Shown piece by piece: positions 9,986 through 61,544 of a stretch of 64,000 nt of DNA. This stretch comes from Stegostoma tigrinum. Taxonomy: Eukaryota. The stretch lies in assembly GCF_030684315.1 (NCBI RefSeq), contig NC_081379.1, positions 42,530,381 through 42,594,380 of the forward strand, written 5' to 3'. Position 1 is the stretch's first letter. Each line of letters begins with the position of its first letter. The notes below the pieces were generated by a model, which was not told the DNA's origin, did no database searches, and saw only the letters and a program-made list of their open reading frames with translations. The position numbers were made by a program, and so were the translations under genes.

Positions 9986-10017
9986 ATTCCCTCATCAACT
10001 TGCAATAAACCGTTGGA

Positions 10018-17700: not shown

Positions 17701-19214
17701 CCCATCCTTTTTTATCGCACCCCACAACACATAAAGAGCCTTGTATCAAGGAGATGTCTCTACAACAACTTGTCAAGAGAAATTGGGGACGTGATAAAGG
17801 TTGGCCTATTCACTGATGCCCCTCCACCCTGGAGTAAATTAGACGTAAAGGTACCAGCGGAGAACTGCAGAAATGCAAGCGTTTTATTCCTGCTCAGTAG
17901 AAACAACACACAGGACGCCTGCAGGCCAAACAGCCAAACGTTAGCAGTTGGGAAACGTTTGGAGACAGCGATTTGTCATAACATTAGCAGGCATGTGGCG
18001 AAATCAGGATTTATAAGTGAAATCTAGGGAGGATATATTAAAGGGAAATGGTGTTTAACAAGGTCGATTTTGTGAAACACTAAAGAAAGATTCTGAACAG
18101 TGAATATTCGGTGCTTTGTAACTGGAGTTATAAACGGACCATTTGATACACTACCACATAATAAGCATGTTAGCTAAGATGAAGTCATTTCTATTACATC
18201 GCCACTATTAAATATTTAGCTAAATGACAGAGATTGGTGAGCAGTTGTTCCCAGACTTGGGTTAGTATGTACTTTTCTTACTCCAAAAATCACTGATGAG
18301 GCCATTGCTCTCCTGTCATTATGGACTGTTGGCTTGGATATGCAGGCTTTTTTAAAAATTAGAGAAGACAGTAACTCGGAATTGTAGCAAACCTTGAGGA
18401 GAATGATCAGATATTTCAACAGGACATGAACAAACGCGGTTTTCCCATGGCAAATGAATTTTTACAAGCTGAGGTGAGAAGTAATTTCGATAATATAAAT
18501 TGTAAATGTAATTGCAATATAAATGTAAGTGAATGACTTCCACCATCCATCCTTTAGGACGATCAGTCCTGAACTAACTTCGCCTTCTTCCATATGAACA
18601 AGTAAAACCTACTTCAGTAACTTATTTTTCGCAAGGACCGCAATGGTCATTTGTCGATTACTACCCTCCGTTTTCGCGCTCCCTTATATTTTGGGGGCTT
18701 CTGAAATAAAGCATTTTCCATCTAATCTTTGTTCCTGGGTGTGCTGCATCTTTTGTTTCGTTGGATTCAATCCTTCTGGCATAATAGTAGATGGCTTTGA
18801 CATATCATTTTTACAAAAAAACACGTTGCATTCTCCTTTTTGAGTGCGAGCAGCAGCGGAGGCAAGACGGACCCGGAAGACTGCAGCTAAGGTAAAGCAG
18901 TTTATTTTTAAAATTACTTACCGGTAGCGGGCAGCGGTGTTTTTTTTTCCTCTTTCAGAGAAGGAGCGGGAGCATCAGAGGAAGTGACGAGGACCAGAGG
19001 GGCAGCCGGGAAGGAAAGCAGTGACCATATATATCAGCAAGGCGGCTTAACCCGAGACTCTACAACTGTAGTGTCTCCCACCCGCCGCCCTCCTCTAACT
19101 TAGTTAATAAGGTAAGGTTCATTCTAAACTTTCTCTATTGAACATAAGTTTGTTATTATTACTTGAAGTGAGCTTTCTGCTTTAGTATTGAGTGGGTGTT
19201 CAGATAAGTGGGGT

Positions 19215-20149
19215 ATGGATGCTAGGGCAGTTGCTTGCTCCTCCTGCAAAATGTGGCAGTTGGGAGATGTGGCACACGTCTCCGCTGGCTACATCTGCGG
19301 GAAGTGCACCCAGCTACAGCTCCTTGAAAACCGTGTTAGGGAAATGGAGCTGGAGCTGGATGAACTACGGATCATTCGGGAGGCAGAGGGGGTAATTGAG
19401 AGGAGTTATCGGGAGTTGGTCACTCCTAAGGCTCAGGACGAGGATAGATGGGTTACAGTTAGGGGGAGGAAAGGGGACAGACAGACAGTGCAGAGATCCC
19501 CTGTGGGCATTCCCCTCAGCAATAAGTATACCGTTTTGGATACTGCTGGGGGGGTTGACCTACCAGAGGAAAGCCATAGTAGTCAGTTCTCTGGCACTGA
19601 GCCTGACACTGTGGCAAAGAAGGGAAGGGGGCAGAATAGAAAAGTACTCGTGGTAGGGGACTCGATAGTTAGGGGAATCGACAGGAGATTTTGTGGGCAA
19701 GATCGGGATTCCCGGAAGGTATGTTGCCTCCCTGGTGCCAGGGTCCGGGACGTCTCCGATCGGGTGTATAAAGTTCTGAAAGGGGAGGGTGAACAGCCAG
19801 AAATCGTGTTACATATTGGCACAAATGATATAGCCAGAAATAGGTTTGAGGATATAAAAAGTGATTTCAGGGAGTTAGGATGGAAGCTGCAGAGCAGGAC
19901 GAACAGAGTAGTGTTCTCTGGTTTACTACCGGTGCCACGAGATAGCGAGGTGAGGAACAGGGAGCGGGCGCAGCTGAACACGTGGCTACGCAGCTGGTGT
20001 AGGAGGGAGGGTTTCAGATATGTTGATAATTGGGATGCCTTCTGGGAAGGTGGGACCTGTACAAGAAGGACGGGTTGCATCTGAACTGGAAGGGGACCAA
20101 TGTCCTGGGTGGAAGGTTTGCTCGAGTAGTTCGAGAGGGTTTAAACTAG
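19215..20149 (+). CDS. CR1 ORF1p: Cys zinc finger, coiled coil, SGNH/GDSL esterase domain (one-base frameshift at about 20045)
   Basis: MDARAVACSSCKMW..YICGKC, LENRVREMELELDEL, VVGDSIVRG, LHIGTND. Restoring one G in TCTGGGAAGG gives FWGRWDLYKKDGLHLN...EGLN* (TAG 20147-20149). Confidence 0.85.
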
Positions 20150-23038
20150 TATGGCAGGGGGGTGGGAACCTGAGCTGTATACCAGAGGTGAGCGTTGATG
20201 CAGGTGAGGCAGTAGCAAGAGGTAGACCAGCTAGTGGGAAGGATTTTCCTGGGAAGGAACCAAGGGATCGGTTAAAGTGTGTTTGCTTTAATGCAAGGAG
20301 TATCAGGAATAAAAGTGATGAACTTAGAGCATGGATCAGTACCTGGTGCTATGATGTTGTGGCCATAACAGAGACATGGGTTTCTCATGGGCTGGAATGG
20401 TTGCTCGATATTCCAGGGTTTAGAACATTTAAAAAGAATAGGGAGGGGGGAAAAAGAGGAGGGGGTGTAGCACTACTAATCAGAGAGGGTATCACAGCTA
20501 CAGAAGCTTCCATTGTCGAGGAAGATCTGCCTACTGAGTCAGTATGGGTGGAAATTAGGAGCAGCAAGGGAGTAGTCACCTCGTTAGGGGTTTACTACAG
20601 GCCCCCCAATAGCAGCAGGGAGATTGTAGAAAGCATAGGTCGACAGATTTTGGAAAAGTGTGGACGCAGTAGGGTTGTTGTAATGGGTGACTTTAACTTT
20701 CCTAATATTGATTGGAACCTCCTTCGAGCAGAAGATTTGAATGGAGCTGTTTTTGTAAGGTGTGTTCAGGAGGGTTTCCTAACGCAGTACGTTGACAGGC
20801 CGACGAGGGGAGAGGCCATTCTAGACTTGGTGCTCGGAAACGAGCCGGGGCAGGTATCAGATCTTGTGGTGGGAGAGCATTTTGGTGATAGTGACCATAA
20901 CACTCTCTCATTCTACATAGCTATGGAGAAGGAGAGGATTAGGCAGAATGGGAGGATATTTAATTGGGGAAGAGGAAACTATGATGCGATTAGACACGAG
21001 TTAGGAAGCATGGACTGGGAGCAGTTGTTCCATGGTAAGGGAACTATAGACATGTGGAGATGGTTTAAGGAACAGTTGTTGGGAGTGATGAGTAAATATG
21101 TCCCTCTGAGACAGGCAAGACGGGGTAAGATAAAGGAACCTTGGATGACGAGAGCGGTGGAGCTTCTAGTGAAAAGTAAGAAGGTAGCTTACATAAGGTG
21201 GAGGAAGCTAGGGTCAAGTTCAGCTAGAGAGGATTACATGCAGGCAAGGAAGGAGCTCAAAAATGGTCTGAGGAGAGCCAGGAGGGGGCACGAGAAAGGC
21301 TTGGCAGAAGGAATCCGGGAAAACACAAAGGCATTTTACACTTACGTGAGGAATAAGAGAATGGTCAAAGAAAGAGTAGGGCCGATCAGGGATAGCATAG
21401 GGAACTTGTGTGTGGAGCCTGAGGAGGTAGGGGAAGCCCTAAATGAGTTTTTTTGCTTCTGTCTTTACGAAAGAAACGACCTGTGTAGTGAATGAAACCT
21501 TTGAAGAGCAGGTGTGCATGCTGGAATGGATAGAGATAGAGGAAGCTGATGTACTGAAAATTTTGTCAAACATTAAGATTGACAAGTCGCCAGGCCCGGA
21601 TCAGATTTGTCCTCGGCTGCTTTGGGAAGCGAGAAATGCAATTGCTTCGCCACTTGCGAAGATCTTTGCATCCTCGCTCTCCACTGGAGTCGTACCTGAG
21701 GACTGGAGAGAGGCAAATGTAATTCCTCTCTTCAAGAAAGGAAATAGGGAAATCCCCGGCAATTATAGACCGGTAAGTCTCACGTCTGTCGTCTGCAAGG
21801 TGTTAGAAAGGATTCTGAGGGATAAGATTTATGACCATCTGGAAGAGCATGGCTTGATCAAATACAGTCAACACGGCTTTGTGAGGGGTAGGTCATGCCT
21901 TACAAACCTTATCGAGTTTTTTGAGGATGTGACTAGTAAGGTTGATGAGGGTCAAGCTGTGGATGTGGTGTATATGGACTTCAGTAAGGCATTTGATAAG
22001 GTTCCCCATGGAAGGCTCATTCAGAAGGTCAGGAGGAATGGGATACAGGGGAACTTAGCTGCTTGGATACAGAATTGGCTGGCCAACAGAAGACAGCGAG
22101 TGGTAGTAGAAGGAAAATATTCTGCCTGGAAGTCAGTGGTGAGTGGGGTTCCACAGGGCTCTGTCCTTGGGCCTCTACTGTTTGTAATTTTTATTAATGA
22201 CTTGGACGAGGGAATTGAAGGATGGGTCAGCAAGTTTGCAGACGACACAAAGGTCGGAGGTGTCGTTGACAGTGTAGAGGGCTGTTGTAGGCTGCAGCGG
22301 GACATTGACAGGATGCAGAGATGGGCTGAGAGGTGGCAGATGGAGTTCAACCTGGATAAATGCGAGGTGATGCATTTTGGAAGGTCGAATTTGAAAGCTG
22401 AGTACAGGATTAAGGATAGGATTCTTGGCAGCGTGGAGGAACAGAGGGATCTTGGTGTGCAGATACATAGATCCCTTAAAATGGCCACCCAAGTGGACAG
22501 GGTTGTTAAGAAAGCATATGGTGTTTTGGCTTTCATTAACAGGGGGATTGAGTTTAAGAGTCGTGAGATCTTGTTGCAGCTCTATAAAACTTTGGTTAGA
22601 CCGCACTTGGAATACTGCGTCCAGTTCTGGGCGCCCTATTATAGGAAAGATGTGGATGCTTTGGAGAGGGTTCAGAGGAGGTTTACCAGGATGCTGCCTG
22701 GACTGGAGGGCTTATCTTATGAAGAGAGGTTGACTGAGCTCGGTCTCTTTTCATTGGAGAAAAGGAGGAGGAGAGGGGACCTAATTGAGGTATACAAGAT
22801 AATGAGAGGCATAGATAGAGTCGATAGCCAGAGACTATTTCCCAGGGCAGAAATGGCTAGCACGAGGGGTCATAGTTTTAAGCTGGTTGGTGGAAAGTAT
22901 AGAGGGGATGTCAGAGGCAGGTTCTTTACGCAGAGAGTTGTGAGAGCATGGAATGCGTTGCCAGCAGCAGTTGTGGAAGCAAGGTCATTGGGGTCATTTA
23001 AGAGACTGCTGGACATGCATATGGTCACAGAAATTTGA
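20140..23038 (+). CDS. CR1 ORF2p: apurinic endonuclease + reverse transcriptase (one-base frameshift at about 21450)
   Basis: FNARSI, AITETW, YYRPP, MGDFN, SDHN (APE) and QGSVLGP, FADD (RT). ORFs 20020-21495 and 21443-23038 join across a T run. Confidence 0.88.
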
Positions 23039-23136
23039 GGGTGCATCCATGAGGATCAATGGTCGGCACAACATTGTGGGCTGAAGGGCCTGTTCTGTGC
23101 TGTACTGTTCTATGTTCTATGTTCTCTAACGCGCTT

Positions 23137-23356: not shown

Positions 23357-23504
23357 GTAAGTAGGCATGTGAATATGCCCTATAGCTGCTTTTAACGTTG
23401 CTCCTTGTTGGTGTTGTCACTCTTGCGTTAACTGCCATGAGCTAAACTAAGACAATATTCGTAATTGCAACGTGTGATTGACCTCTGAGTTGTCGCTTCA
23501 CCAG

Positions 23505-23846
23505 GTGCATGCGGGGATCCTGCTCTGACTCAGCCAGGTTCCGTCTCAACATCCCCGGGGAAGACTGTGAAGATTACCTGTACCGTGTCCGGAGGAAGCA
23601 TCGGCAGCTACAGCACGAGCTGGTACTGGCAGAAACCCAGGAGTGCCCCGGTGTTGATTTGGGACGAGTACGATGAAACTGCTTCGGAAATTCCAGATCG
23701 ATTTACAGGGTCTGTGGACTCATCGAATAACAAGATGCATTTAACCATCACCAACGTACAGCCGGAGGATGCCACCGATTACTACTGCGCTGTAGCAAGT
23801 AGCGGAATAGCTACATTCGGGAAAGGAACCAAACTGAACCTGGGCG
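23505..23846 (+). CDS. IGL: Ig lambda (type II) light chain gene 1, germline-joined VJ exon, open
   Basis: Acceptor CCAG, DPALTQPGSVSTSPGKTVKITC..WYWQKP..DYYC AVASSGIAT FGKGTKLNLG, phase-1 donor GTAAGT at 23847. No RSS between V and J. Confidence 0.95.
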
Positions 23847-25863
23847 GTAAGTAAATTTTTGGTCACCTGCGCACCAAGTGTCGCTTTGAGTTTGACATTT
23901 TTGTGGAAAATCACCGAATCCCAAAACACCGGCCCGAGTCTCGCCCAGGAATTGTATCCGGAGCCTCAAAGCCCCGGTTCAACCATTCAAAACACTAATT
24001 ACAATTTTCGCTCGATGCCTTTTTCATTCGAGTGAAAACAGCGCCGCGATATAAGCGCCGTTCCAAGTGTGAGACTGCGAAGCCATCTCTAAGCAATGAA
24101 AATCGCTCAGTCCAAGATTCTCACATTAATCCCAAGGGCTAGCAGGAACTTTTTTTTTGCGTTGCTCTCAGCCAGTTTGATCAACGCTAATCCAAATTCT
24201 GCGTTAACGCAGTCACAGCCAGGATCTCTCAGAATACGGTCAGATTGTTGATCTGAGACTGGCAACTCTGCTGTGAGCTACACGCGCTGTTGTGACTGAC
24301 TTTGGAACTTACTGTCATAACCAACTGTAGCGTTTTAGTTTCTAGATCACTAACTAGAAAAAGGACTGTTTTAATCTTCGGATTATGTACACCGTTTCAC
24401 TCAGTGTTTGCAGCTGTACGGTATCGGCGCGAAAGGTTATTTACTTACAGAAGAAACGATAAAAATCCTGCTTTGAAATTGTTACAACGGGGTTACAATT
24501 TATAGTCAGCACTATGAGAATAATTCTGTTTAATCAGAAGCAAGAGAATAAACTGGTTGCTAAACGCTACATCGTATACAAGCTTGAAGGCAGTTGGGAA
24601 CCGGTTGTTGGGACTGGGTAGGGGTGCAGGAGGGGAGTGTGCTGGTAGTGACCGGATGAGCGGAGATAGTGCCCAAAGAGAGAGAAAGACAGCTAGGCAG
24701 ATAAAAGGGTGGATATTCATATGTCAAGGGGAAAGACAAACTCATAATGGGGACCATAAATAAGTGCAGATGGGTTGGCAGGACAGAAAGAAGCTCAAGG
24801 AACTCAGAGTTGGTGTAACACAACCTCGGGACAGGTCAGTGGCTGTCAATGCACACGCTAGAAGTGCTGCGCGTATGTTTCTGTGGCGTAACATACGCGA
24901 GACCGTGCACCGGTGGACAGCGTTGTGACAGCGAGCTGCTGTGGTTGGCGGCATTGTCTAAGGGATCGCTTTTGCCAGGTCATTGTGTTTGCATTTCGCC
25001 GACAGTGACTGATTATGCTTATTCAATATGGTTACAATGTTGGCAAACATTTCTTGGAAACTCATTCGCTTTGGTGAAATGGTTTTTTTAATCGCCGTGG
25101 ATGTCTCCGATTTTTGTATTTCGAACGCGAGGGGAGAGCCCTCTGCGATTTTCCAGTGCTGTCGCCGACAAGGATGGGAGCGGAAAAAGGTGCAAACGAA
25201 TAATAGAGCTGAGCCTTAGGAATAGTAGCTGTACAGAAATACAGATATCATCCTAAAAAGCCCACATCCACACCTAACCTCTACCACTAAAAATAAGCGA
25301 AGCACGCAAGAATCAAGATGACAGTGGGATTTATGGAATAAATGTTGCAAAATGTTGTCTTAGCAGCATTGGTTCCAGGTTTTATACCAAATTCTAATTT
25401 GCCGGTTTTTACCTTGTTTCTAATCCTCGGGTCCTGGGACACTGTGACAGGCCGCGTCAGAGCAGTATATTTGAACGGGCTGCTGAGATCCCGTCTTATT
25501 TTAAACAGGACTAAAAACTGGCGATGCAGAAAATCTGAAACAAAAACAGAGAGTTGTTGAAGAAACTCAGCAGGCCGTATCTGTAAAGAGAAAAACAGAA
25601 TTGACATTTGGAGTTCAATGACTGCGAGGTTTACTCTGCTGTTTTTCTCCAACACTCTTATTGTCCAGTATTATATATTTTCCGTTTTAACATTTTCTCA
25701 CGTTGAAGAATCTTCATTTTTTAACGTTACAGTTAGTAACAGTAAAACCATCTTCTCGGGTTATATCCTCCCTAGAGCTGCGGGTCTCAGTTTCTCCGAT
25801 TTGAAAAAAAAGTAAAATATTAACTCCACTTTTAAGCCAATTTCATTTCTTTCTACATTACAG

Positions 25864-28799: not shown

Positions 28800-29008
28800 A
28801 GATAACAAGGTCTGGATGAACACAGCAGGTCAAGCAGCATCAGAGGAGCCGGAAGGCTGACGCTTCGGGTCTAGGCCCTTCTTCAAAAACGGTCTAGGCC
28901 CGAAGCGTCAGCTTTCCTGCTCTTCTGATGCTGCTTGGCCTGCTGTGTCCATCCAGCTCCATACCTTGTTATCTCAGATTCTCCAGCATCTGCAGTTCCT
29001 ACTATCTC
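28800..29008. mobile_element. Short Penelope-derived fold-back insert
   Basis: Inverted arms of the Penelope 3' repeat. 14-bp TSD ATGACCTGTATGTC at 28786-28799 and 29009-29022. Confidence 0.85.
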
Positions 29009-29879
29009 ATGACCTGTATGTCCTTGTTTGCTGTGATCTGCCTGTACTGCTCACAGAACAAAAGCTCTTCATAGTACTTAGGTACATGTAACTACAATAA
29101 ATTAAATTAAATCAAGTAGTTTAACTAATACATGTAAGAAGGAGCTCAAAAATACTCCCATGTGTTCCATATAGTTGTGACCTTTGTATACAGTTACACG
29201 CCCCTTTCAGCGTGGAAAATCGACCTATCACGAACCATCGTGCATGTCACATGCTCTAGCTGCCAATTAAATGCTTCAAGCTAGTTGTTTAGGAGCCAAG
29301 TACTTTCCAAAACGCAAACTTGTTACAGTTAAATGGAGGAGATTTTTAAAAACTGCGTGCTCCATAAAAACAGGAGAAAATTAACATGTTTTCCGAATAG
29401 TATTTCATGCTAGTTAAAATCCCTAACTTTGTAATTAGCTATTCCCAAAAAAACATGCAATGTTCTGATTAGCCAGAAGGTGCAAATCCGATCCCTGACT
29501 TCGGGTCTTAATCTGAGACTCGGCTCGGACTGCATTCTGATCCTTAACTAAAATATAATTGACTCGTACCGGCAGGATTTTGATTTATGACGTGAAACCA
29601 TGTGGTGAGTCCTGCTATCTTTGGGACCCCTATCTACCCTAATTGCACCTTATCTTAAAAATATTACAGAATTTGGCCTTTTTCTTTATTGCTATCAGTT
29701 TATGAAAGAGGATATAATCATTCTTTCTGCTTTCCATTTCCTGGTCTTAGATATATGTCGCATATGGCATGCAGTGTCTCCTAAATAATTCTTCATACCA
29801 CGGCTATTCTTCTTTTCATCCTCACTCTCCATTATACTAGTTTTTGTCTTTTATTTTATTTCTGCCTTCACAGGAAACA

Positions 29880-31116: not shown

Positions 31117-31267
31117 TAATAATGGGAACTGCAGATGCTGGAGAATCCAAGATAATAAAATGTGAGGCTGGATGAATACAGCAGGCCCAGCAGCATCTCA
31201 GGAGCACCTGTGCTCCTGAGATGCTGCTGGGCCTGCTGTATTCATCCAGCCTCACATTTTATTATCT
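31117..31267. mobile_element. Short Penelope-derived near-perfect palindrome
   Basis: Arms of about 59 bp (31149-31268). 14-bp TSD TGTTTTCTGCCATG at 31103-31116 and 31268-31281. Confidence 0.9.
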
Positions 31268-31659
31268 TGTTTTCTGCCATGCCAGCTTTAGATGAACGAT
31301 TAGTAATTGAGCATGTTGGAAGCAGGATAATTTTACATATTGAATGATTGATGGGAGTTAGAGTAAGATGCAAAATTGGAATTGCGGTGAGGAATATCGA
31401 TGAGGTTATTCAAAAACCTGACGATTTAAGGGGACCGCTCCTGTTCATAGTAATTTTCGTGTCGCTCATTTTAATTTGATTGCAAATGAAAAAGACCGTT
31501 CTTCTGACAGGTGGTGGCGCTGTCGAGCAGCCTTAGCTCAACTGCAGTGTGTCTCAAAAATTCTGGCGTAATGTGACACTGACTAAAATGATCTGGAAAT
31601 AAACTAAACGAAAATAAGCACGTATAACTCAAATACCTGCCGCATGCGATAAAATCAAG

Positions 31660-34622: not shown

Positions 34623-35072
34623 AGAGATAATGGGAACTGCAGATGCTGGAGAATTCCAAGATAATAAAATGAGGCTGGATGAACACAGCAGGCCAAGCAG
34701 CATCTCAGGAGCACAAAAGCTGACGTTTCGGGCCTAGACCCTTCATCAGAGAGGGGGATGGGGAGAGGGAACTGGAATAAATAAGGAGAGAGGGGGAGGC
34801 GGACCGAAGATGGAGAAAAGAAGATAGGTGGAGAGAGTATAGGTGGGGAGGTAGGGAGGGGATAGGTCAGTCCAGGGAAGACGGACAGGTCAAGGAGGTG
34901 GGATGAGGTTAGTAGGTAGCTGGGGGTGCGGCTTGGGGTGGGAGGAAGGGATGGGTGAGAGGAAGAACCGGTTAGGGAGGCAGAGACGGTCTAGGCCCGA
35001 AACGTCAGCTTTTGTGCTCCTGAGATGCTGCTTGGCCTGCTGTGTTCATCCAGCCTCACATTTTATTATCTT
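34623..35072. mobile_element. Penelope 3' end (minus strand) with short inverted arm
   Basis: Reverse complement of about 5030-5364 plus an inverted terminal segment. 14-bp TSD AAAATAACATTAAG at 34609-34622 and 35073-35086. Confidence 0.88.
34722..34749 (-). ncRNA. Minimal hammerhead ribozyme core (Penelope-associated)
   Basis: CUGAUGA-A-GGGU CUAG GCCC-GAAAC-GUC on the minus strand. Confidence 0.7.
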
Positions 35073-35850
35073 AAAATAACATTAAGTATGTGTAGAATCT
35101 GCGCTAGACAATATGATTGTAATGTACACCCACTTAAAATTATGCTTAACATAAGAGTTGACGATTCGTGAAAAAGTAAGAGACCAAGAGTACAGATAAA
35201 GGATTTTGTTTTTGATTGTCAAGGCGTGTCAAGTGCAGTTCCCCTGGAGTCGGTGTTGGAGCCTCAGTTTAAAATGATTTGCACGTACCATTCTGTGTGG
35301 AAGTCAACAGGAATCAGTAACTTCTAAGGTGCAGAGAACTGTGTTGAACAGACTGATTAAATTGCAGAATAAGATGGCACAATCTAAGAACTAGAGCTAA
35401 ACCATTTCGGATAAATACAAACTAAATGGCAAATTGCAAAATTGGGAATATTTGTGAAGCCTCCTTCAACTATGCAAAAGTCTGTCCGTTCAGCCTCTAA
35501 AACCAAGACCTATAGGATTCAAACTTCCTCACTCTTTTGCACGTCTAAAAATAAATTCGCGACTCATTTTCTACTCATCCAACTTGTTCTTCGCGAGGGC
35601 CACGTAACTACTCTACTGGTTATCGCCTTTAGCTTTATAATTTATTGCTAACTAAGGGCGTCTAAAAACCCTACCATAGTTTTATCTAACTGGTATTTCT
35701 TGTTGCACAGCATTTTTTACTTCGCCGCATTCAATTATCCTTGTTGTGCCATCTATGTTTTAACCAAATCTTTCGTCATATTTTGCTAGAATAGGTGGAA
35801 TGAACAGTGCGCAGATGTCGTTGATTCCTGCGGTCCCGTTGGTCCGATGT

Positions 35851-36470
35851 CACGTGATTACAGATTTGCATAAATCATTCACATTCAGTGACTTTGCCAG
35901 GTTTGTAGACACTTAATGGGAGGTTTGGAAAGGTCTCAGATATACATTATTATATCAGGCACGAGAACGTTCATCCACAGCCTGGAGTTCTCTCTGTCTC
36001 CCCAATAAGAGATGCAAACCTCTATTGCTGCATTTTTACATTGATCTGTATTTTATAATGTTTGCGTCAGAGTTTAATGCCTTGAGTTATGAATAACTTT
36101 CGCAATGGAAAAGTGCAATTGAGCAAATGCTTCTTATTTCACTAGGCTCAAACGGGGACTTTGTCCTGACTCAGCCGGGATTCACCTCAACATTCCCGGC
36201 GGAAACAGCGAATATCACCTGCACCATGTCCGGGAGCAACATCGGCTGCTAATAAACCAGCTGGTACTGGCAGAAAGCCGGCAGCGCCCCAGTGTTGGTT
36301 TGGAGTGAGTACTCCGGAATTCCACTAGGTATTTCAAATCTATCCAGTGGGCCCGTGGATTCGTCAAGTAACAGGATGTACTTCACTATTACCAACGTGC
36401 AATCAGAGTAGCCGCTGATTATTTCTGTTGTGGATTACACTTTCGGGAGAGGAGCCAAGTTGGGCCTTCA
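35851..36470 (+). pseudogene. Ig lambda (type II) pseudogene 2: promoter, decayed leader, joined VJ; no C exon seen
   Basis: CACGTG at 35851 and ATTTGCAT at 35864-35871. Leader ATG and donor lost. VJ exon 36146-36470 (DFVLTQPG..NITCTMSG..WYWQK..FGRGAKL) has TAA TAA at 36250-36255 and a frameshift near the second Cys. Confidence 0.9.
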
Positions 36471-36488: not shown

Positions 36489-36825
36489 TGGATGTGAATT
36501 TGCTCGCTGAGCTGGAAGGTTAGTTTTCAGACGTTTCATCGCCATCCTAGGTAACATCATCAGTGAGCCTCCGGTGAAGCGCTGGTGTTATGTCCCGCTT
36601 TCTATTTATCTGTTCAGATTTCCTTGGGTTGGTGATGTCACTAACCCAAGGAAACCTAAACAGATAAATAGAAAGCGGGACATAACACCAGCGCTTCATC
36701 GGAGGTTCACTGATGATGTTACCTAGAATAGTGATGAAACGTCTGAAAACTAACCTTCCAGCTCAGCGAGCAAATTCACATCCAGAAACTCAACCTGAGC
36801 TACAAATCTTCTCAAAACTCGCTGG
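36489..36825. mobile_element. Second-family Penelope-like fold-back (arms about 148 bp + 41-bp tail)
   Basis: 36489-36784 is self-complementary. 10-bp TSD ATAATTGACA at 36479-36488 and 36826-36835. Confidence 0.88.
36710..36743 (+). ncRNA. Minimal hammerhead ribozyme core (mirror copy on the minus strand at 36530-36563)
   Basis: UUCA-CUGAUGA-U-GUUAC..GUGAU-GAAAC-GUC-UGAA. Flanking UUCA/UGAA can form stem I. Confidence 0.68.
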
Positions 36826-36867: not shown

Positions 36868-37055
36868 CTCCAGAGATAATGCGAACTGCAGATGCTGAAG
36901 AATCTGAGGTAACAAGGTGTAGAGCTGGATGAATACAGCAGGCCAAGCAGCATCAGAGGAGCAGGAAAGCTGACGTTTCGGGTCTGGACCGTCAGCTTTC
37001 CTGCTCCTCCGATGCTGCTTGGCCTGCTGTGTTCATCCAGCTCAACAACACCTTG
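36868..37055. mobile_element. Short Penelope-derived fold-back insert
   Basis: Inverted arms. 10-bp TSD TTAACCAATG at 36858-36867 and 37056-37065. Confidence 0.82.
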
Positions 37056-38508
37056 TTAACCAATGTTGGATCTGTGATTATCTGTGTTTGGTCGAAAATC
37101 ATTGAATCCAAAATCACTAGTGTCGAGTCATTCTCCGTGTTTACGCTACCATCTTCCTCATTCAAATCGTTGTATTTCCTCAGTGCAGCGACGCAGGTCA
37201 GAAACAATTTACAGGCACTTAACAAATTGACTCAGAGTAGATCAGGAGGACTTCCGTCAATTTCATTCATTCAGACCTTTGGAATCGGTGATATTTTGAT
37301 GACATTCCATGCGACTGAGCATGTCCGAATCCTGCAGAGGACACACAGACAATGTATTAAGGTGAGATCAGTGCTACGAGGTTTTCATTGTGAGAAAACC
37401 TAAATGAATCCGGTTCTATTCGAACTTTATATCATTCTGTGCTGACAATGTTCGGAACTCCAAGCCGCTCCCGCGCAGGAAGCTGAAAACCAACATAATT
37501 GCTGACGGGGGTCAGTGTTTTGAGGCCAGTGTTTTACATCATGGATTGTTGGGTACCCATTGTGCGCAGCTGTTAAGAGTAGGATCAACAAAGCTACGGT
37601 GTGCTGAGCAAGGAAGCAGACATTTTTCTTTAAAACAGCGGGAAAGATAATGGGTCTGGTGGTTGAAAGGATACGATCGGCCTTCTTTTCAAACCGACGC
37701 AGTCTTTCAGATGTTATCATCTGTGGCCTTCATAACCCCACTCTAAAAGCTGAAAACATACTTGAAAATGCTTGCGCGATTCCACTGAAAGCAGCACAGC
37801 GATATCAGCGTCGTTCTGAATGCGGGAGGACAATGTAGCGTTTTGCTGCAACGCCGTCTCACTCTTCTCGAAGCAGTGAAAACCGCTCAGTCCAAGATTT
37901 TCTCTGTCTTACATTTCGCATTAATCTCCGATGACTCTAGTGAACATTTTGTTTTGCGCTGGGTTCAGCCAGTGATAATCACGTAGATCCAATTCTGCAT
38001 AAGCGCAATCATGGCCAAATTGTTTTGTTAGCAAGTCAATGGACTATTTATTTCTGTCCATCCAATTGCTCGGGAGTGTCTCTGAATAGTTTTTTTTAAA
38101 ATCGTTGCCCCTGTACCTGCGCTCTCTCAAGTGTTGCTCGCTGAGTAGTCTGTGTCAGTGAGCGCAGTAAAACATAAAATATCGATAGTCTAACAGTGTG
38201 TGTAATAATCATTATTTGGCTGCGCAGAATGATCGGGCTAATGTGCAAAATAAAACAGAAAGACTCCCTTTGTCTGACTTGTTCTTTATTTCAATGAGTC
38301 TCTAGTACATTTCTCAAGAGAATGTACTGTAAAATACTTCGCATTTTTACAATAATGGAAACAGATAGGTTAGAATATTATTGGATAGTCCCGCAGGTCT
38401 CCGACTATTTCAGTGTCAGCAAATTGAGCTAAACACCGAATCGTAGGGGTGCCGTGGCAATGGGAACTGGCGACACTTGTCTGATTACTCACATTTTCAA
38501 CTTGCATT

Positions 38509-41451: not shown

Positions 41452-42143
41452 ATTTGCATAAATAGGTGGGACTTGCCATGTAGATATTCTTAAAGACAGG
41501 TTGAGAAGTCGCCGTATCATTAAGATCAAGGATATTAGGTTCCATCAGTGGGGAAACATTTTGTCTTAACTTTGATTTCAAAAATCTACAAAATGAGGGA
41601 GTGGCTTCGTGTTCTCCTCGCCCTGCTAATTGGTTTGCAATGTACGTACGCCACTGTCAATCACTATTTTTTTAGTTCTCTTTGTATTGCTGTTCTTGGC
41701 ATGATTCTGATGATTACAGTAATTGATGTGGTTGAAACTGAATTACATCATTCGACAGCGGTTTCGAGGACTGCCGTTTGACATTAACTTCTTATTTTGC
41801 CAGGTGCTGACGCTGAAACCGTGCTGTCCCAGCCAGGGTCCATCTCAAGCTTGTTGGGGAAAACGGTCACGATTACTTGTTCGGAGGCAGAGTAGCCAGC
41901 TACCGCACGGACTGGTACTGGCAGAAACGCGACAGCGCCCCCGCCTGTGTTTGGAAGGATTATGTTTCTAGCAGAGGCGCTGGGATTCCTGTTTGATTCA
42001 CTGGGCCCAGGGACACGTCGAGTAACCTGATTCGTCTAACTATTTCCAATGTACAGGCCGAAGATGTCGCTATTATTGCGGCGCTTGGCATGCCACCTAT
42101 GGTGGATTCACTTTCGGGAAAGGGACGAAACTGAGTGTGGGCG
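41452..42143 (+). pseudogene. Ig lambda pseudogene 3: octamer, leader (41593-41641), joined VJ (41804-42143)
   Basis: ATTTGCAT at 41452-41459. Leader MREWLRVLLALLIGLQ. V ETVLSQPGSISSLLGKTVTITC, then frameshift, in-frame TGA and a second frameshift. Junction YYCGAWHATYGGFTFGKGTKLSVG + GTAAGT. Confidence 0.9.
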
Positions 42144-43274
42144 GTAAGTCCAACCTTTGCTGTTTAAGTCTTGGATTCTTGAATTTCGAGTCCAGAAGGT
42201 CTGAACGGATTTGGTTGCAAACACAAAAACTGCTATGGAATTTGCATTGACCATTCCTCCATTAGCTCTTGCTATTAAGATGGAAACGCGTTTCTACTTT
42301 GTTGGTTAAATGCTCCAGAAAATATCAAACCAAAATAACGATGTTAGTGATGCCAGCGTAAAATCTTCTGATCAATTATTTTCGACGGGGCTCGGATGCA
42401 ATTGACTTCCTTCCTACTTAATTACAATTCCTTGCTGTTTTAAAACTTACTTCTAATGCATGTCAATCTGAATGAGATCCTGCTGAACATCATGTAGATA
42501 TTTGCAGTCGACTTCCACGTCCTCCTGCTGTAATTATTGCTGCCTGAAAGACTTTATTTAGCGGAAGCTTTAACCAGACACGGCAGCATTAATATTCCAA
42601 ATCAGGGAAAATTAAATGATACTTAAACTCAATGGATATGGAAAGTTATTGCCCGATTTTCAATGTTGTGATTCACTTTAAACATAAATTCGTAACTTCA
42701 CCAGCAACTAATGAATAACAATAATATGTGGTGGTAAGCTTAAAAATAATATAACCTGCATATGATATGAATTTAATGCATTTTTGATATTGATATTATC
42801 AAAGATAAAGTGAGTATAGTGGTTTGCTGTAAACATCGGAAGTAAAAGACTGGAGTAGGCATTCTACCCCTCGAGCCAACTCTGCCATTCATTATGGTCA
42901 GAGCTGATCATCAAGTTCAATACCCAAATCTTGGTTCTCCCCATCCCGCCCCCACACACCCATACCCTTTGATCCCCCTGGCCACAAGATCTACATCTAC
43001 CTCCTCGGAAACATGTACTGATGTGGCCTCATCATCTTCCGTGGTAATGAATTCCACAGGTTCGCCACTCTCAGTGAAGATATTTTGTTCGATTCGTTGC
43101 ATAGTCTTCCTGAGCCAACGATTCTGTGATTAATTAATGAACAACCTCTCACTATACAGCACATGACTTGCACTATTAGATAGTAAAGTCATTGAAAATG
43201 CAAATAATTGATTTTGACTGTTTAAATCTAACTCGCAATCGATACTTACACGTTGTTTCCAACTTCCTCTCCAG

Positions 43275-43528: not shown

Positions 43529-45144
43529 TGCAAGAATCGTACGTAAACTGCTATTGTACCATGAATAGACTTCAGTTGAACAGTATTCGAGCTTAAAGGT
43601 TGAAGGGTTTTTTTTATTTTAATTGCTGTTTTGGAAATTACCACAATGTGTGGTCAATTTGTATGTTTGACTCCACTGGGCGTGACTCTGTATTGGTCTC
43701 ACCTCTATCATTGAGTATAATAAATTCATTCTCCCAATGTCTCAGTTGATGTTCTCATTTTCTTGCTTTACTTATCTTCGAACGTATGTCATTTTTACGT
43801 GTCAAAATTACGAAGTTCCATGTCTTATAATATTTTACCAAATTATACTAAGCTTTAGGTAAAAAGATATTCGATTGAGAAATCATTTGGTAACGGTGTA
43901 ACTTGTCAAAAGCAAATTTGACTAAATTTCGCTTATATATTGACTGAATTGCAGTCAATCCAAGTGTAAGGTGTGTATGTATTCAGTGAGGGGCCCTAAT
44001 CAATTGGCACGAACAGATTGTATTTGGAGTGCATGCTTTGAGAAGTAGTGACACTACAAGGGAAAATCTAGGAGTAACTTTTAAAACACAATGCAATGAA
44101 AAAAAATTACACACAAACACGCACACACGCAGGTCTATAACTCAGGGACGCAAAGATTCGGCGGTGGCCAGTCTTGGGACGAAAGGCAGCCCTTGAACAA
44201 TGGATCTGGAATCGTCTGATGAGTAACAGGGGTAGAAAGTAGCTGATGAAAGGGACAAATAAAGAAATTGCTGGAGAAACTCAGCAGATCTGGCAGTATC
44301 GGTGGCAAGAAAGCAGAGTTAACGCTGCAAGCCCGGTGACTCTTCATCAGATCAGAGCTGAGCGGGATCTCTGTATGCCTAGTTTGGCTGTGGAGGGCTT
44401 AGTGTTCAGGTGAAAGGTCGGGGCTGAATTTTCCGAGAAGTCGTCCTGAGACATCACAATTCATTCAGATGCAGTCCCCTTTTGGAAGGAAGTCCCGCCT
44501 TAGAGCGAAGGCGCCTGATCTCTGTAGCTCTGGAGCTCAGGGACGCAAAGATCAAGCGGCGGCCAGTCTTGGGACGACAGGCAGCCCCTGAGAAGGAAAA
44601 GTGAAGGAGCCAGGACTCAGAGATGGAAGTGCGGTAATTGAAAAGTCCCGCGAGCCTGTGTTTTGATGGTCAATGTTGAGTGCCGAAGTGTGGACTGCTG
44701 TAATTTTGATTATTGCCAGGGGGGTCTCTAAAGTAGCCACTTACCCCGGCCCGCGCGGTCTGTCCGCCTGGCCTCGCCTCCCCTTGCTGCACGCAAAACT
44801 GCGGCGGAGGCGGAACACTAACTTGTAATGGACATTAATCAGTGACGAATGAATTTCAATAGATCTTAATTGTAAGACTTCCTGATATCATCCCCACCCA
44901 TTGCTATACAGGATTCTGGGGTGGGAGGAAAAGCGTCAGAATGGCCCAATGCATCATTTTACGAAACCCCTTCAAATGCACAGATTGGTAGGAGAGATCC
45001 TAAAATCAATCCTGATAACGATATTTCCTCCAGCGCAGATGCTGCCAGATCAAGTGTTTTCAGCGAGTTACTTTGTTTTACGATCTTAGTTCAGCGAAAT
45101 TGTATAAATCTGAAAGATGATGACAAAGATCCGTTTTAAGTCTG

Positions 45145-47354
45145 AGATAATGGAAACTGCAGATGCTGGAGAATCCAAGATAATAAAGTATGAAGCTGGA
45201 TGAACACAGCAGGTCAAGCAGCATCTCAGGAGCACAAAAGCTGACGTTTCTGGCCTGGACCCTTCATCAGAGAGAGGGATGGGGAGAGGGAAATGGAATA
45301 AATGGGGAGAGAGGGGGAGGCGGATCGAAGATGGAGAGAAAAGAAGATAGGTGGAGAGGAGAGTATAGGTGGGGAGGTAGGGAGGGGATAGGTCAGTCCA
45401 GGGAAGACGGACAAGTCAGGGAGTTGGGATGAGGTTAGTAGATAGGAAATGGAGGTGCGGCTTGAGGTGAGAGGAAGGGATGGGTGAGAGAAAGAACAGG
45501 TTAGGGTGGCAGAGACAGGCTGGGCTGGTTTTGGGATACAGTGGGGGGAAAGGGATGAGCTGGGCTGGTTGTGTGATGCAGTGGAGGGAGGGGACAAACT
45601 GGGCTGGTTTTGGGATGCGGTGGGGGAAGGGGAGATTTTGAAGCTGGTGAAGTCCACATTGATACCATTGGGCTGCAGGGTTCCCAAGCGGAATATGAGT
45701 TGCTGTTTCTGCAACCTTCGGGTTGCATCATTGTGTCACTGCAGGAGGCCCATGATGGACATGTCATCTAAAGAATGGGAGGGGGAGTTGAAATGGATCC
45801 CGACTGGGAGGTGTAGTTGTTTATTGTGAACCGACCGGAAGTGTTCTGCAGAGCGGTCCCCAAGCCTCCGCTTGGTTTCCCCAATGTAGAGGAGGCCACA
45901 CCGGGTGCAATGGATACAGTACACATCATTGGCAGATGTGCAGGTGAACCTCTGCTTAATATGGAAAGTCATCTTGGGGCCTGGGATGGGGGTGAGGGAG
46001 GAGGTGTGGGGGCAAGTGTAGCACTTCCTGCGGTTTCTGGGGAAGGTGCTGGGTGTGGTGGGGTTGCAGGGCAGTGTGGAGCGAACAAGGGAGTCACGGA
46101 GAGAGTGGTCTCTCCGGAAAGCAGACAAGGGTGGGGATGGAAAAATGCCTTGGGTGGTGGGGTCGGGTTGTAGATGACGGAAGTGTCGGAGGATGATGCG
46201 TTGTATCCGGAGGTTGGTGGGGTGGTGTGTGAGAACGAGGGGGTTCCTCTTGGGGCGGTTGTTGCCGGGGCGGGGTGTGAGTGATGTGTTGCGGGAAATG
46301 CAGGAGACAGGGTCAAGGCACCCCACCAGATCTCCCTCGTCCTCACATACCACCCCACCAACCTCCGGATACAACGCAAATTCCTCCGACACTTCCGCCA
46401 TCTACAATCCGACCCCACCACCCAAGACATTTGTCCATCCCCTTGTCTGCCTTCCGGAGAGACCACTCTCTCCGTGACTCCCTTGTTCGCTCCACACTCC
46501 CCTCCAACCCCACCACACGCGGCACCTTGCCCTGCAACCGCAGGAAGTGCTACACTTGCCCCCACACCTCCTCCCTCAGCCCCATCCCAGGCCCCAAGAT
46601 GGCCTTCTATATTAAGCAGAGGTTCACCTGCACATCTGCCAATGTGGTATACTGTATCCACTGTACCCGGTGTGGCTTCCTCTACACTGGGGAAACCAAG
46701 CGGAGGCTTGGGGACTGCTTTGCAGAACACCTCCGCTCGGTTCGCAATAAACAACAGCAGCTCCCAGTCGCGAACCATTTTAACTCCCCCTCCCATTCCT
46801 CAGACGACATGTCCATCCTGGGCCTCCTGCAGTGCCACAATGATGCCGCCCGAAGTTTGCAGAAACAGCAACTCATATTCCGCTTGGGAACCCTGCAGCC
46901 CAATGGAATCAATGTGGACTTTACCAGCTTCAAAATCTCCCCTTCCTCCACCGCATCCCAAAACCAGCCCAGTTTGTTCCCTCCCTCCACTGCATCCCAA
47001 AACCAGCCCAGCCTGTCTCTGCCTCCCTAACCCGTTCTCCCTCTCACCCATCCCTTCCTCCCACCTCAAGCCGCACCTCCATTTCCTACCTACTAACCTC
47101 ATCCCACCTCCTTGACCTGTCCGTCTTCCCTGGACTGACCTATCCCCTCCCTACCTCCCCACCTCTGCTCTCCTCTCCACCTATCTTCTTTTCTCTCCAT
47201 CTTCGGTCTGCCTCCCCCCTCTCCATATTTATTCCAGCACCCTCTCCCCATCCCTCTCTCTGCTGAAGGGTCTAGGCCCGAAACGTCAGCTTTGTGCTCC
47301 TGAGAAGCTGCTTGGCCTGCTGTGTTCATCCAGCTTCACACTTTATTATCCCCA
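45145..47354. mobile_element. Large Penelope fold-back: minus-strand 3' fragment (45145 to about 46325) joined to a plus-strand 3' fragment (about 46330-47354)
   Basis: GIY-YIG peptides on both strands. 11-bp TSD TTTTAAGTCTG at 45134-45144 and 47355-47365. Confidence 0.92.
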
Positions 47355-48399: not shown

Positions 48400-49080
48400 T
48401 GTGTGAAAGGCAGGAAGCCTTTCTGCCGCTGGGAAAACAAGAATATCTTTGAAATCCTGCAAAGCCAATGGCCAGATAGACGTGCCAGTATGAGAGTCCT
48501 TTCCTAAACCAACGTTGGACAGGCCGTGTTGTCTGCATGCCTGGCATAAGACTCCCCAAAAATTGCTCTACCCTGAGCTCCAGAATGGTAAGCGATCACT
48601 AGAAGAGAAGAGGAAATGCTACAAGGGCACCCTGAAAGCCTCCTTTAACAAATGCAACATTCCCACTGGCACATGGGAATCGCTTGCTCTAGAACATACA
48701 AATTGGAGAAGAAGCATTCACAAAGGCTTTTTCCTGATGAAGGGTCTAGGCCCGAAACGTCAGCTTTTGAGATCGTAAGAAGCTACTTGGCCTGCTGCGT
48801 TCATCCACCTTCATACTTCGTTATCTCCCATTCTCCAGCATCTGCAGTTCCCATTATCTCCTCTTCACAAAGGCACCAACTACTTTTGAGCATCACTGAG
48901 CATGCGTAGATCAAACACAAGCAACGGCATGAGTGTACAAGATCCAAAATGTTCCACTTAACTGCTTCAAACGCCACCGGCCCCATCTATGGCAGAGCCT
49001 ATTGCCTCAAGATTGGACTTTCAGCCGCTGCAGAACCTACTTCTCCTCTCTACTATCCAACTCCTCAAGTGGAAGCGAAA
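48400..49080 (+). mobile_element. RTE-clade LINE 3' remnant interrupted by a Penelope mini-insert
   Basis: PQKLLYPELQNGKRS..KCYKGTLKASFNKCNI..WESLA..WRRSIHKG resembles the RTE ORF C-terminus. Confidence 0.6.
48728..48863 (+). mobile_element. 136-bp Penelope-derived mini element beginning at a hammerhead core (48734-48761)
   Basis: CTGATGAAGGGTCTAGGCCCGAAACGTC. 11-bp TSD TTCACAAAGGC at 48717-48727 and 48864-48874. Confidence 0.85.
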
Positions 49081-56355: not shown

Positions 56356-56940
56356 TTACATCGCATTCCGAAAATGATCTTCTTTTGGTGCTCGGATCGC
56401 CTCCTTGGAAAAAGCTTCAAATCTTCTGAGGAATATGATGACACAAATCAGCAGAATGGCCTGAATGATAATGAAGACGAACAGCAGGATCTGGCAGATG
56501 AGAACCAAGTTACAGTACCAGTCCTGGCAGCTAGACACTACTTCATCTTCCGTTAGATACAAGATGAGTCTTCCCTGAAGTTCTGCTGGCCAGGAGCACC
56601 TTAATTTCTTGTACATAGTTCGGTTTTCCTGCTTGAGGAGCCATGATCTCAGATATAGAATGTCACAATCACAGATCCATGGGTTCCTGTCCAATGAGAC
56701 CGATCTCAGCTCACTCAGTGTGTCGAAAAGGCCGCTGGGAATGGAAGAAAGTTTGTTGTCGTTCAGTTTGATCTCGGTGACGCTGGCCTCAAAGCGTTGG
56801 GGAATGGTATCTACATTCAGTTCCAGACGGCTGCAATCAGCAGAGGTCCCGGAACAGCGGCACGTTGGCGGACATTGAAAAACCATTGGAACCAAAGAGA
56901 GAAACACGAGGAAAACCTCTTGGGGTCTCAACATTGACAT
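56356..56940 (-). CDS. GP1BB: Platelet/thrombocyte glycoprotein Ib beta chain-like (signal peptide, LRRNT, single LRR, LRRCT, TM, short tail)
   Basis: CPPTCRCSGTSADC, LNDNKLSSIPSGLFDTL, NPWICDC, LRC..LQGRLILYLTEDE (compare GPIb-beta LRGRLLPYLAEDE), juxtamembrane Cys, TM followed by LRR basic motif. A splice acceptor (TTGTTTGCAG) directly precedes the ATG at 56940. Confidence 0.85.
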   Translation of the reverse strand: MSMLRPQEVFLVFLSLVPMVFQCPPTCRCSGTSADCSRLELNVDTIPQRFEASVTEIKLNDNKLSSIPSGLFDTLSELRSVSLDRNPWICDCDILYLRSWLLKQENRTMYKKLRCSWPAELQGRLILYLTEDEVVSSCQDWYCNLVLICQILLFVFIIIQAILLICVIIFLRRFEAFSKEAIRAPKEDHFRNAM

Positions 56941-57653
56941 TCCTGCAAACAACATTCACGGGTTAGCTCGCAAAGAAAGGTGAAATGTGACAGATGGAGA
57001 AAAAGTATACACGCACGAAACAAATGAAATGCTTAACATAGCCCAATACGCTTGCTGCGGAAAAATCATCTACCTAAATTACAAGTTCAGACCATCGTGG
57101 TGTGATTATTAGACGCAATGTGCGAAAGGGAATTCGGAAGGCTAAAGGAATACTGGCCCTTAATTCAAGCGGTTTGCAACACAACAGTAGAGAATTCTGA
57201 TTCACTATACAAGGTGATGGTGTGGGCTGTTTTGGTCCGCTTATTTAAGGGAAGATATCGTTTAATTGGAGGCAATTCAGAGAAGGTTCACTGTAATGAT
57301 CCCGTATAGGGGGGTGTTTGTCTTGTGAATAAATGCTAAACAGGTTGGGACTCTACTCACGGGAGCTTAGAAGAATGAGAGATACTCTCACTGCGACATA
57401 TAGGATTCTAAAGGACCTTGACAGGGTAAAGGCAGAGAAGATGTCTGCCTGGTCTCTGTCTCCACCTATCCGCGCACTCCATGTATTCGACTTAAATACC
57501 ATCTTTTTCCTCGCATCTGTCAGCTCTGACGGAAGATTGGATCAAATCATGAACTCCGCTTCCTGTCCACAGATGCTGCCAGACCTGCAATTTCGGAATT
57601 TATATCAACGTGGCTTTAAGAAATGAAATTAACTACAAGAGATGGAATATGAT

Positions 57654-60439: not shown

Positions 60440-60464
60440 GGGTGCATGTGTGTGTGTTTGTGAT

Positions 60465-60518
<54 letters not shown>

Positions 60519-60836
60519 CGCGAGAGAGAGAGACGGTGTGTGTGAAAAATGATCTGTGTGAGAGAGACAGTGTTTATGAGAGATGATCTGCGTGAGTGTG
60601 TATGATAGTGTGCGTGTGTGTGTGTGCGAGAGAGAGAGACAGTGTGTGTGAAAAATGATCTGTGTGAGAGAGACAGTGTTTATGAGAGATGATCTGCGTG
60701 AGTGTGTGTGTGATAGTGTGCTTGTGTAAGTGAGTTTGTGTGTATGTATGCATGTGTGTGTGTTTGTGAGGGAGAGAGTGTGTGTGAGAGAGAGGATCTG
60801 TGTGAGAGTGTGTGTGATAGTGTGTTTGTGTAAGTG

Positions 60837-60872
<36 letters not shown>

Positions 60873-60920
60873 AGAGAGAGAGAGAGAGAGAGAGAGACTG
60901 AGACAGAGACAGAGATACAG
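60440..60920. repeat. Compound (TG)n/(CG)n/(AG)n microsatellite with an internal duplication of about 110 bp
   Basis: Directly visible dinucleotide runs. Confidence 0.95.
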
Positions 60921-61485
60921 GCAGTATAGTGTTGTGGGGTCACCTGTAGTGTGACATGAACCCAAGATCACAGTTGAGGCTGTCTTCATGGATACTGAAC
61001 TTGGCTACCAGCCTCTGCTCAGCAATTCTGCATTGTTGCATATCCTGCAGTTTGCTTGGAGGACATTTACCCGACGATCCAACGCTGAATGTCCTTGACC
61101 ACTGAAATGCTCCCCCACTGAAGGTGTTCCCCCACCACGTGTATGGCAGTACTCATGTGCATCAGCCAAAGTTGTCTATCTCATACACTACAGGCAAGGA
61201 TGCCCCAAGGCATGATATACTGGCGAAATCATGCAGATGCTACCACAACAGATGAATGGACATCATGCAACAATCACCAGACAGGCATGTTGCCTCCCAA
61301 GTGGGAACACTTCTATAGTCAAGGACATTTAGCCTCGGATCTTTGGGTAAATGTCCTCCAAAGCAGGTGTCAGGATACACAACAACAGAGTCTCCGAGCA
61401 AAGCTGTTAGCCAAGTCTGGTACCCATGATGACAGCCTCAATTAGGATCTGGGTTCATGGGGCACGACAGGTGACCCCACCACAC

Positions 61486-61544
<59 letters not shown>

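Follow-up and report, generated by a model that had tools for sequence, protein, structure and literature searches.

Minimal type I hammerhead ribozymes have been described in the terminal repeats (pseudo-LTRs) of Penelope-like elements (PLEs) of the Xena, Poseidon, Neptune and Cercyon groups (Cervera and De la Pena 2014, PMC4209133). Such motifs combine a type I core with an extra base between A9 and stem II, a G10.1-C11.1 pair, a palindrome at 15.2-16.2 and a stem I of 4-5 bp, and they occur mostly as single dispersed copies, with close pairs on opposite strands and several families per genome. Monomers are inactive and dimers show low activity, and coelacanth and Xenopus genomes hold 4,000-9,000 motifs each, with 9,000 in Xenopus tropicalis (PMC4209133).

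PAc, a Poseidon element of Anolis carolinensis (Frangieh et al. 2024, PMC11167929), has an ORF that starts at the base of stem II and encodes a protein that nicks and extends both DNA strands, starting at two internal sites, one at each limit of the tail. Cleavage of its hammerhead is protein-dependent and dispensable for insertion in vitro, and public RNA data showed no RNA ends at the site (PMC11167929). Endonuclease-bearing Neptune and Nematis elements are marked by a CX2-5CxxC linker (Craig et al. 2021, PMC8557442). Non-LTR retrozymes are type I hammerheads in animal repeats that are related to PLEs, can reach very high copy numbers, stand head to tail in tandem and are mostly canonical (PMC7229834; bioRxiv 10.64898/2026.07.22.740005).

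Here we describe a 64-kb stretch of the zebra shark (Stegostoma tigrinum) genome, hereafter the window, in which a sequence-only reading had proposed minimal hammerheads of three types. The motifs resemble those of PMC4209133 in core, extra base, G10.1-C11.1 pair (G-U in types B and C), palindrome and dispersal, and differ in the type A stem I of 2 bp and in a density far above 4,000-9,000 per genome. Type B is like PAc (PMC11167929) in its ORF start, with the cut 28 rather than 26 nt after the AUG and a genomic end about 109 rather than 111-118 nt into the ORF; both have an optional 30-40-nt tail and an AT-rich target with ATT, and type B is known here from a 336-nt fold-back remnant. Type A shares with Neptune and Nematis (PMC8557442) the DKG reverse transcriptase (RT), the CX2-5CxxC linker, a C-terminal GIY-YIG endonuclease with CxxC, 5′ truncation, an inverted upstream copy and a one-sided tail, but the window contains no full-length copy or upstream direct repeat. 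Unlike retrozymes, the window elements carry minimal hammerheads and are PLE ends that lie dispersed or inverted; head-to-tail units with a full hammerhead are absent from the window, and tandem joints are rare in contigs.

Our reading, to which we assign a probability of roughly 85%, is that the window contains minimal type I hammerheads in the pseudo-LTRs of three or four PLE families, scattered as 5′-truncated or head-to-head copies, and that these are likely functional only in the RNA of an active element, where they would cut weakly with help from the element protein.

Hammerhead motifs in the window

All nine hammerhead sites proposed earlier were found at their coordinates and strands. 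We searched both strands with a minimal-hammerhead descriptor (CUGANGA-N, stem II of at least 2 bp, GAAA, a palindrome and UH) that was composed after the motifs were known. It returned six matches in the 64 kb: three of type A (34722, 48734 and 63883), two of type B (36530 and 36710) and one of type C (59994). In 200 dinucleotide shuffles of the window the same search averaged 0.055 matches and never exceeded 1, and a looser pattern (CTGANGA-N5-30-GAAA) gave 19 matches where 5.9 were expected. An Rfam scan of the window found no hammerhead family at E<=5; its 18 matches were all to miRNA or snoRNA models under gathering scores, mostly on fold-back hairpins.

The core (CUGANGA and GAAA..UH) is intact at six sites and changed in three A copies and in a fourth type, D. 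An extra base precedes stem II and the G10.1-C11.1 pair is present, with G-U at 10.1-11.1 in B, C and D. Helix III is the short palindrome that had been proposed, ACGU in A and B and AGCU in C. Type A has a stem I of 2 bp, which 48734 lacks altogether; in B the stem has 3-4 bp, and in C and D it has 5 bp. The earlier motif description omitted stem I, and its cleavage triplet GUC holds for types A and B but not for C, where the triplet is CUU. Its three motif types and listed copies are all present; the decayed type D, three decayed copies of C and several incomplete A arms had been overlooked. The two B motifs, which had been listed as separate sites, are two arms of one fold-back insertion, and the same applies to 45243 and 47260. 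Types A, B and C each sit in a PLE end, in line with the PLE origin suggested in that reading, and the assignment of the motifs to minimal type I hammerheads of PLEs is supported, as is its view of the source as a shark.

Type A motifs lie at the 3′ end of a Neptune-type element

The type A element and motifs are:

3019-5364, plus strand: 5′-truncated Neptune-type PLE with RT, CX4CxxC linker, GIY-YIG frame and 3′ UTR with hammerhead
5276-5303, plus strand: type A hammerhead with G12>A at 5296, sense relative to the ORF
34722-34749, minus strand: type A hammerhead, core intact, stem I of 2 bp, predicted cut between 34722 and 34721
45243-45270, minus strand, and 47260-47287, plus strand: mutated type A hammerheads within the 45141-47354 fold-back
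48734-48761, plus strand: type A hammerhead, core intact, stem I lost; the copy 48734-48860 starts at C3 and has an 11-nt target duplication
63883-63910, minus strand: type A hammerhead, core intact, in an arm that bears the tail and runs off the end of the window

The longest copy (3019-5364) is flanked by a 10-nt target duplication (3009-3018 and 5365-5374), and its frame has two in-frame stops, read as X, followed by a frameshift farther on. Its layout is that of an endonuclease-bearing PLE, with RT and then a C-terminal GIY-YIG in one frame, which is seen directly for type A, and the DKG motif, the CX4CxxC linker and the CxxC within the endonuclease are all present. Pfam matches to RVT_1 (E 2e-5) and GIY-YIG (E 6e-4 to 4e-3) both fall under Pfam cut-offs. 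Among 8000 sequences scored, 1229 homologs reach E<=1e-20, and the top ones are carpet-shark gene models at 74-90% identity. A linker of the CX2-5CxxC form between RT and endonuclease occurs in the window's own protein (P0001) and in 85 of the 89 homologs with a recognisable GIY-YIG. A profile match of one sequence (P0124) to the Neptune alignment was weak, with a probability of 33%, and carries no weight here. From the linker and the RT motifs, type A is provisionally named Neptune rather than Nematis.

The type A motif lies on the sense strand about 380 nt past the last conserved endonuclease residues, and a zebra-shark gene model (P0011) ends in a peptide translated through it. The frame from its in-core AUG stops after 13 codons. 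In the longest copy the G12>A change falls on a CpG and is therefore likely to be neutral decay. The other two mutated copies have two stem II changes (45243-45270) and A6>C (47260-47287). Within the window no copy of any type has both pseudo-LTRs; only 3′ ends are present, and the full element and the type A start codon do not appear.

Type B motifs overlap a start codon

The type B features are:

36489-36824: type B fold-back insertion with a 40-nt tail on the plus arm only and a 10-nt target duplication at 36479 and 36826
36530-36563, minus strand: type B hammerhead in the inverted arm, stem I of 3 bp
36710-36743, plus strand: type B hammerhead, stem I of 4 bp, with AUGs at 36713 and 36716 within the core

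The in-core AUGs start a frame of 36-37 residues that matches the N-terminus of full-length Poseidon-type RT proteins. All three AUGs are upstream of the predicted cut, which is 28 nt from the A9 AUG. A search of the peptide against 1.84 billion representatives yielded three matches, all Opisthorchis proteins, and it is 44-53% identical to the N-terminal ends of PLE proteins from trematodes and other sources; these proteins have RT but lack the linker motif. Two full-length homologs (P0127 and P0128, of 824 and 832 residues) start with the matching peptide (46% and 44%) and carry an RT domain; P0127 has a GIY-YIG motif and no Cys linker, and in P0128 GIY-YIG is not recognised by the pattern used. 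The window holds no family B DNA for RT or endonuclease. Type B is a PLE end with two Penelope/Poseidon clade features, the absence of a Cys linker and an ORF that starts within the hammerhead; the clade evidence is indirect and comes from N-terminal homology to full-length proteins.

A Hemiscyllium ocellatum gene model annotated 'RP9 isoform X2' (P0122) begins with a peptide 78% identical to the type B core-AUG frame. Its first exon is possibly an exonised PLE repeat, or else a prediction artefact.

Types C and D

The remaining motifs cluster near the end of the window:

59933-62265: type C PLE inverted pair with a microsatellite-rich 3′ UTR and GIY-YIG C-terminal remnants at both arms
59994-60022, minus strand: type C hammerhead, stem I of 5 bp, AGCU palindrome, CUU triplet
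62369-62395, minus strand: type D hammerhead, related to A but older; stem I of 5 bp, helix III decayed at two positions
62735-62906: small decayed type C fold-back, with arms that begin about +2 and +9 from C3

The GIY-YIG remnants of the inverted pair (near 60940-61114 on the minus strand and 61125-61478 on the plus strand) match at E 7e-5 and 1e-3, a weaker PLE link than for A or B; the type C motif lies downstream of such remnants. A decayed second type C motif lies near 62178-62205 on the plus strand within the same pair. Neither of the two type C fold-backs has a target duplication of at least 7 nt.

Insertions are head-to-head fold-backs with a one-sided tail

Self-comparison of the window revealed eight fold-backs: five of type A, one of type B and two of type C. 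Those of type A are:

28800-29009: older type A fold-back with decayed core; arms from about +2 and +7 of C3; 14-nt target duplication
31119-31275: type A fold-back without hammerhead; arms begin at +35 and +36; 14-nt target duplication
34623-35072: type A fold-back insertion; long arm 34623-34996 on the minus strand, with tail, and short inverted arm 34988-35072 on the plus strand
36872-37058: older type A fold-back; arms begin at +10 and +25; 10-nt target duplication
45141-47354: type A 2.2-kb fold-back with two GIY-YIG-to-tail arms; 11-nt target duplication

In the 34623-35072 insertion the short arm starts within stem II, and a 14-nt target duplication lies at 34609 and 35073. All five type A fold-backs have one arm that ends +123 to +127 from C3 and another that ends at +75 to +93, the shorter typically lacking about 35 nt; the B arms differ by 40 nt. 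Such a one-sided tail is known from PLEs. Short and long arms are 82-98% identical and have the tail and duplications in common. Target duplications of 10-14 nt were recovered by script for seven of nine insertions and by eye for one more, and random flank pairs share at least 10 nt in 0.2% of trials. The insertions thus display the PLE traits of 5′-truncated copies, an inverted upstream copy and a 30-40-nt tail at one end.

Read against the anole element (PMC11167929), this anatomy suggests a route of insertion. The RT-endonuclease would nick both strands 10-14 nt apart, and reverse transcription would start at two internal sites about 35-40 nt apart, 3′ of the hammerhead. Head-to-head joining of the two cDNAs would then give a fold-back with the tail on one arm. 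All window arms that reach into the motif contain bases upstream of the scissile bond; such copies would be read through it because the template is, on this model, mostly uncut RNA. The fold would be selected only in replicating lineages, and inserted copies would drift to decay and be mostly inert.

Several other features of the window are recorded here in their own right. Positions 1-2900 and 5400-11320 are two inverted, broken endogenous-retrovirus-like stretches (with integrase) that are 86-91% alike, and the long PLE copy sits inside them. A nearly complete LINE, presumably CR1-like, occupies 19167-23125 on the plus strand, with an esterase-like ORF1, endonuclease and RT. Positions 23500-23855 (plus strand) hold an immunoglobulin light-chain V exon (V-set, E 6e-19) with paralogs near 35838-36427 and 41824-42149. 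The exon is already joined in frame to a J-like segment, after which comes a GT donor, and it looks like a germline-joined VJ gene, a configuration familiar from shark light-chain clusters. Finally, a single-exon ORF for a 199-aa leucine-rich-repeat membrane protein (56356-56955, minus strand) resembles, as we presume, platelet glycoprotein IX or Ib-beta.

Related loci retain the motif and show compensatory changes

Scans with an alignment of 28 homologs provided 88 related loci, 80 from metagenomes (of 410 confirmed there) and 8 from genome contigs. In 37 of these the sequence extends at least 300 nt past the estimated end of the ORF; 13 of the 37 have a sense-strand motif that passes the descriptor 87-212 nt beyond that end, compared with 0 of 37 on the antisense strand and 0.04 in shuffles. 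Seven of the 24 loci without a passing motif have a near-match at +101 to +113, two are doubtful and the remaining 15 have nothing even under a relaxed pattern. Motifs are upstream of the ORF in four loci (L002, L006, L007 and L026) and downstream in others, and none of these relatives has a motif on both sides in direct orientation. A 1027-codon ORF begins at the core AUG in L007 (323-3406), and in L006 the ORF spans the upstream motif (310-3726); L002 has its first Met about 180 nt downstream. DNA pattern scans of viral contigs and metagenome contigs gave no match, and a protein scan of viral contigs found no relative.

Stem covariation across families, a test that the sequence-only reading had set for stem II, is evident in 19 motifs, four of them from the window: 86% of cells are paired versus 63% in shuffles, and the covariation score is 0.64 versus 0.19. 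None of 500 shuffles scored as high, and slid controls reached 0.11 at most. The descriptor itself demands stem II pairing, which leaves stem I as the one stem with unbiased covariation. In stem I, which is absent from the descriptor, the three inner positions pair in 19, 18 and 16 of the 19 rows with 4-5 pair types each; the helix III palindrome is pairable in all 19, and helix I in most relatives has the usual 4-5 bp. The rows are related and were chosen for passing the descriptor, and the shuffle counts are not probabilities. The set excludes near-duplicates or inverted twins (L008, L018, L042, L087 and second copies), two motifs whose helix III is longer (L086 and L088) and off-pattern hits in L054, L081, L082 and L085. 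Type C, one column off, was also left out; with it, the 20-row set is 83% paired with a score of 0.59.

Four loci in one assembly labelled a bacterial MAG (L081, L082, L085 and L086) have a CCGACGA core (U4>C) about 100 nt past the ORF. Their PLE content suggests that this bin contains animal DNA.

Folding and cleavage potential

The lowest-energy fold predicted for type A pairs CUGAUG with CGUCAG and buries the core, and motifs of types A, B and C fold no better than shuffles (z 0 to -0.7). The window holds no same-family, same-strand pair of intact motifs close together; the nearest same-strand, same-family pair is 47260, with a broken core, and 48734, with no stem I. Partner motifs within a fold-back lie on opposite strands, so a transcript holds one motif plus its antisense and would form a long hairpin. 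Dimer energies were evaluated without stem I and the lowest-energy dimers are other folds, which says nothing about activity. A-B heterodimers on the minus strand, 1.8 kb apart, were considered and rejected, as the stem I strands are not cross-complementary.

The high motif density noted in the sequence-only reading stands, but its extension to a genome with a very large number of self-cleaving motifs is not supported as worded, because close same-family, same-strand intact pairs are missing from the window, type A has a 2-bp stem I and a core predicted to be sequestered, and published minimal motifs are inactive as monomers and weak as dimers (PMC4209133) or depend on the element protein (PMC11167929). 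Judging from these predicted folds and arrangements, the dispersed copies are likely to be mostly inert unless the element protein aids folding.

Loop 2 of A (34734-34737) and of B (36722-36725) both hold the palindrome CUAG, and the whole stem II of type A is near self-complementary. A second intermolecular helix could form through these loops.

Abundance and insertion junctions

Six passing motifs in 63.9 kb correspond to about 94 per Mb (95% interval 34-205), although the window was selected because of them and one insertion accounts for two. At this density a genome of 3-4 Gb would hold a total of order 10^5 motifs, an estimate that rests on one selected window. Such a total would lie above that of Xenopus tropicalis and be comparable to or above that of the axolotl, whose far larger genome has 126,247 type I motifs (PMC7229834). 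Contig pieces on the 383-nt type A end number 182,536 in one run and 22,541, 387 and 258 in three other species (4 of 23 runs used); these counts and the summed depth are not copy numbers, and such contig data do not reveal RNA ends. A whale-shark preprint describes expanded Penelope-like elements in introns (10.1101/443036).

Twelve type A arms have a visible 5′ end: six start inside the 28-nt motif, two at +35 and +36 and four far upstream. Two type C arms begin at +2 and +9. This tally omits the arm cut by the window end, an older arm at 61882 and type D; its boundaries are accurate to within a few bases, the two arms of a fold-back do not count as independent, and short copies would be expected in any case. 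The largest loose-end group among those listed in two species is at 34750, one base before C3 (917 and 272 records), with diverse AT-rich flanks and, in the second species, first letters that fit its own family variant. Among the matches listed, contig joints connect the tail end at 34623 to the hammerhead at 34744 (15 contigs) and 34752 (9), and in 3 of the 12 rows listed the tail end joins 34721, the position immediately past the cut. These junctions may mark the RNA 5′ end and occasional use of cleaved RNA as template.

A more far-reaching proposal is that this is the densest known hammerhead store (hundreds of thousands) and that the in-vivo role of the ribozyme is recorded in its insertion junctions. 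The 5′-end pile-up would then reflect the RNA start or 'strong-stop' cDNAs, a minority of tandem joints begin at the base just past the cut, and the type B core AUG would point to a protein-triggered mRNA-to-template switch that genome statistics alone could reveal. We offer this tentatively and consider it rather doubtful.

Alternative explanations

We weighed four other accounts of the motifs. Chance look-alikes within a repeat might be suspected from the lack of an Rfam hammerhead and folding z-scores near zero, but the excess over shuffles (6 versus 0.055), the position and strand fixed in relatives and the compensatory changes in stem I rule this out for practical purposes. If the dispersed copies were instead active ribozymes that cut read-through host transcripts as monomers or RNA dimers, the six intact cores in 64 kb would be their source, the ACGU or AGCU palindromes would permit an intermolecular helix III, the 3-5-bp stems I kept by B and C would assist, and the 182,536 contig pieces on the type A end would imply plentiful partner RNAs if expressed. 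This is improbable given the 2-bp stem I and sequestered core of type A, folds of A, B and C no better than shuffles, fold-back partners that face opposite strands and the published behaviour of inactive monomers and weak dimers (PMC4209133).

The hammerhead might alternatively govern mainly the translation of the element, since it overlaps the start codon and a protein-assisted cut could remove the AUG as feedback or promote initiation. Consistent with this, three type B AUGs upstream of the cut open a real N-terminus, the ORFs of L007 and L006 start at or run through the motif, the anole element combines a like layout with protein-dependent cleavage (PMC11167929) and viral type I hammerheads promote translation initiation (PMC13725137). 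On the other hand, the type A core AUG opens only 13 codons, the first Met of L002 is about 180 nt downstream and just 1 of 120 Neptune-type homologs starts with an MK..KR peptide, that one being a truncated internal match; as a main role we therefore think this unlikely. Many arms cover just the hammerhead and tail, listed contig joints connect the tail end back to the hammerhead or to 34721, and a preprint traces retrozymes to PLE repeats, with one chondrichthyan among the reported hosts (bioRxiv 10.64898/2026.07.22.740005), all of which would fit short copies that form a separate non-autonomous retrozyme or SINE spreading as a circular RNA of about 127 nt. We judge this very improbable in view of the 82-98% identity of short and long arms with common tail and duplications, the lack of a tandem array of the motif in the window and the small number of joints among 182,536 pieces.

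Implications

We thus return to PLE-borne minimal hammerheads: the window elements are most likely new shark members of this known group, present as relics in truncated copies. Our search, which left subscription journals mostly outside its scope, found no publication on shark PLE hammerheads as such, though preprint supplements may name shark families; the searched supplement files of PMC4209133 (file 1 excepted) contain no shark terms. Carpet sharks thereby join the animals with minimal-hammerhead PLEs, with three clades or families side by side, and their insertion anatomy is as predicted by the single element studied in vitro. Were it true that dispersed copies cut host transcripts, the importance would be greater, but the evidence leans against it. 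What the shark provides is a genome with many datable copies, in which junction counts could test the use of cleaved RNA as template and the position of the RNA start.
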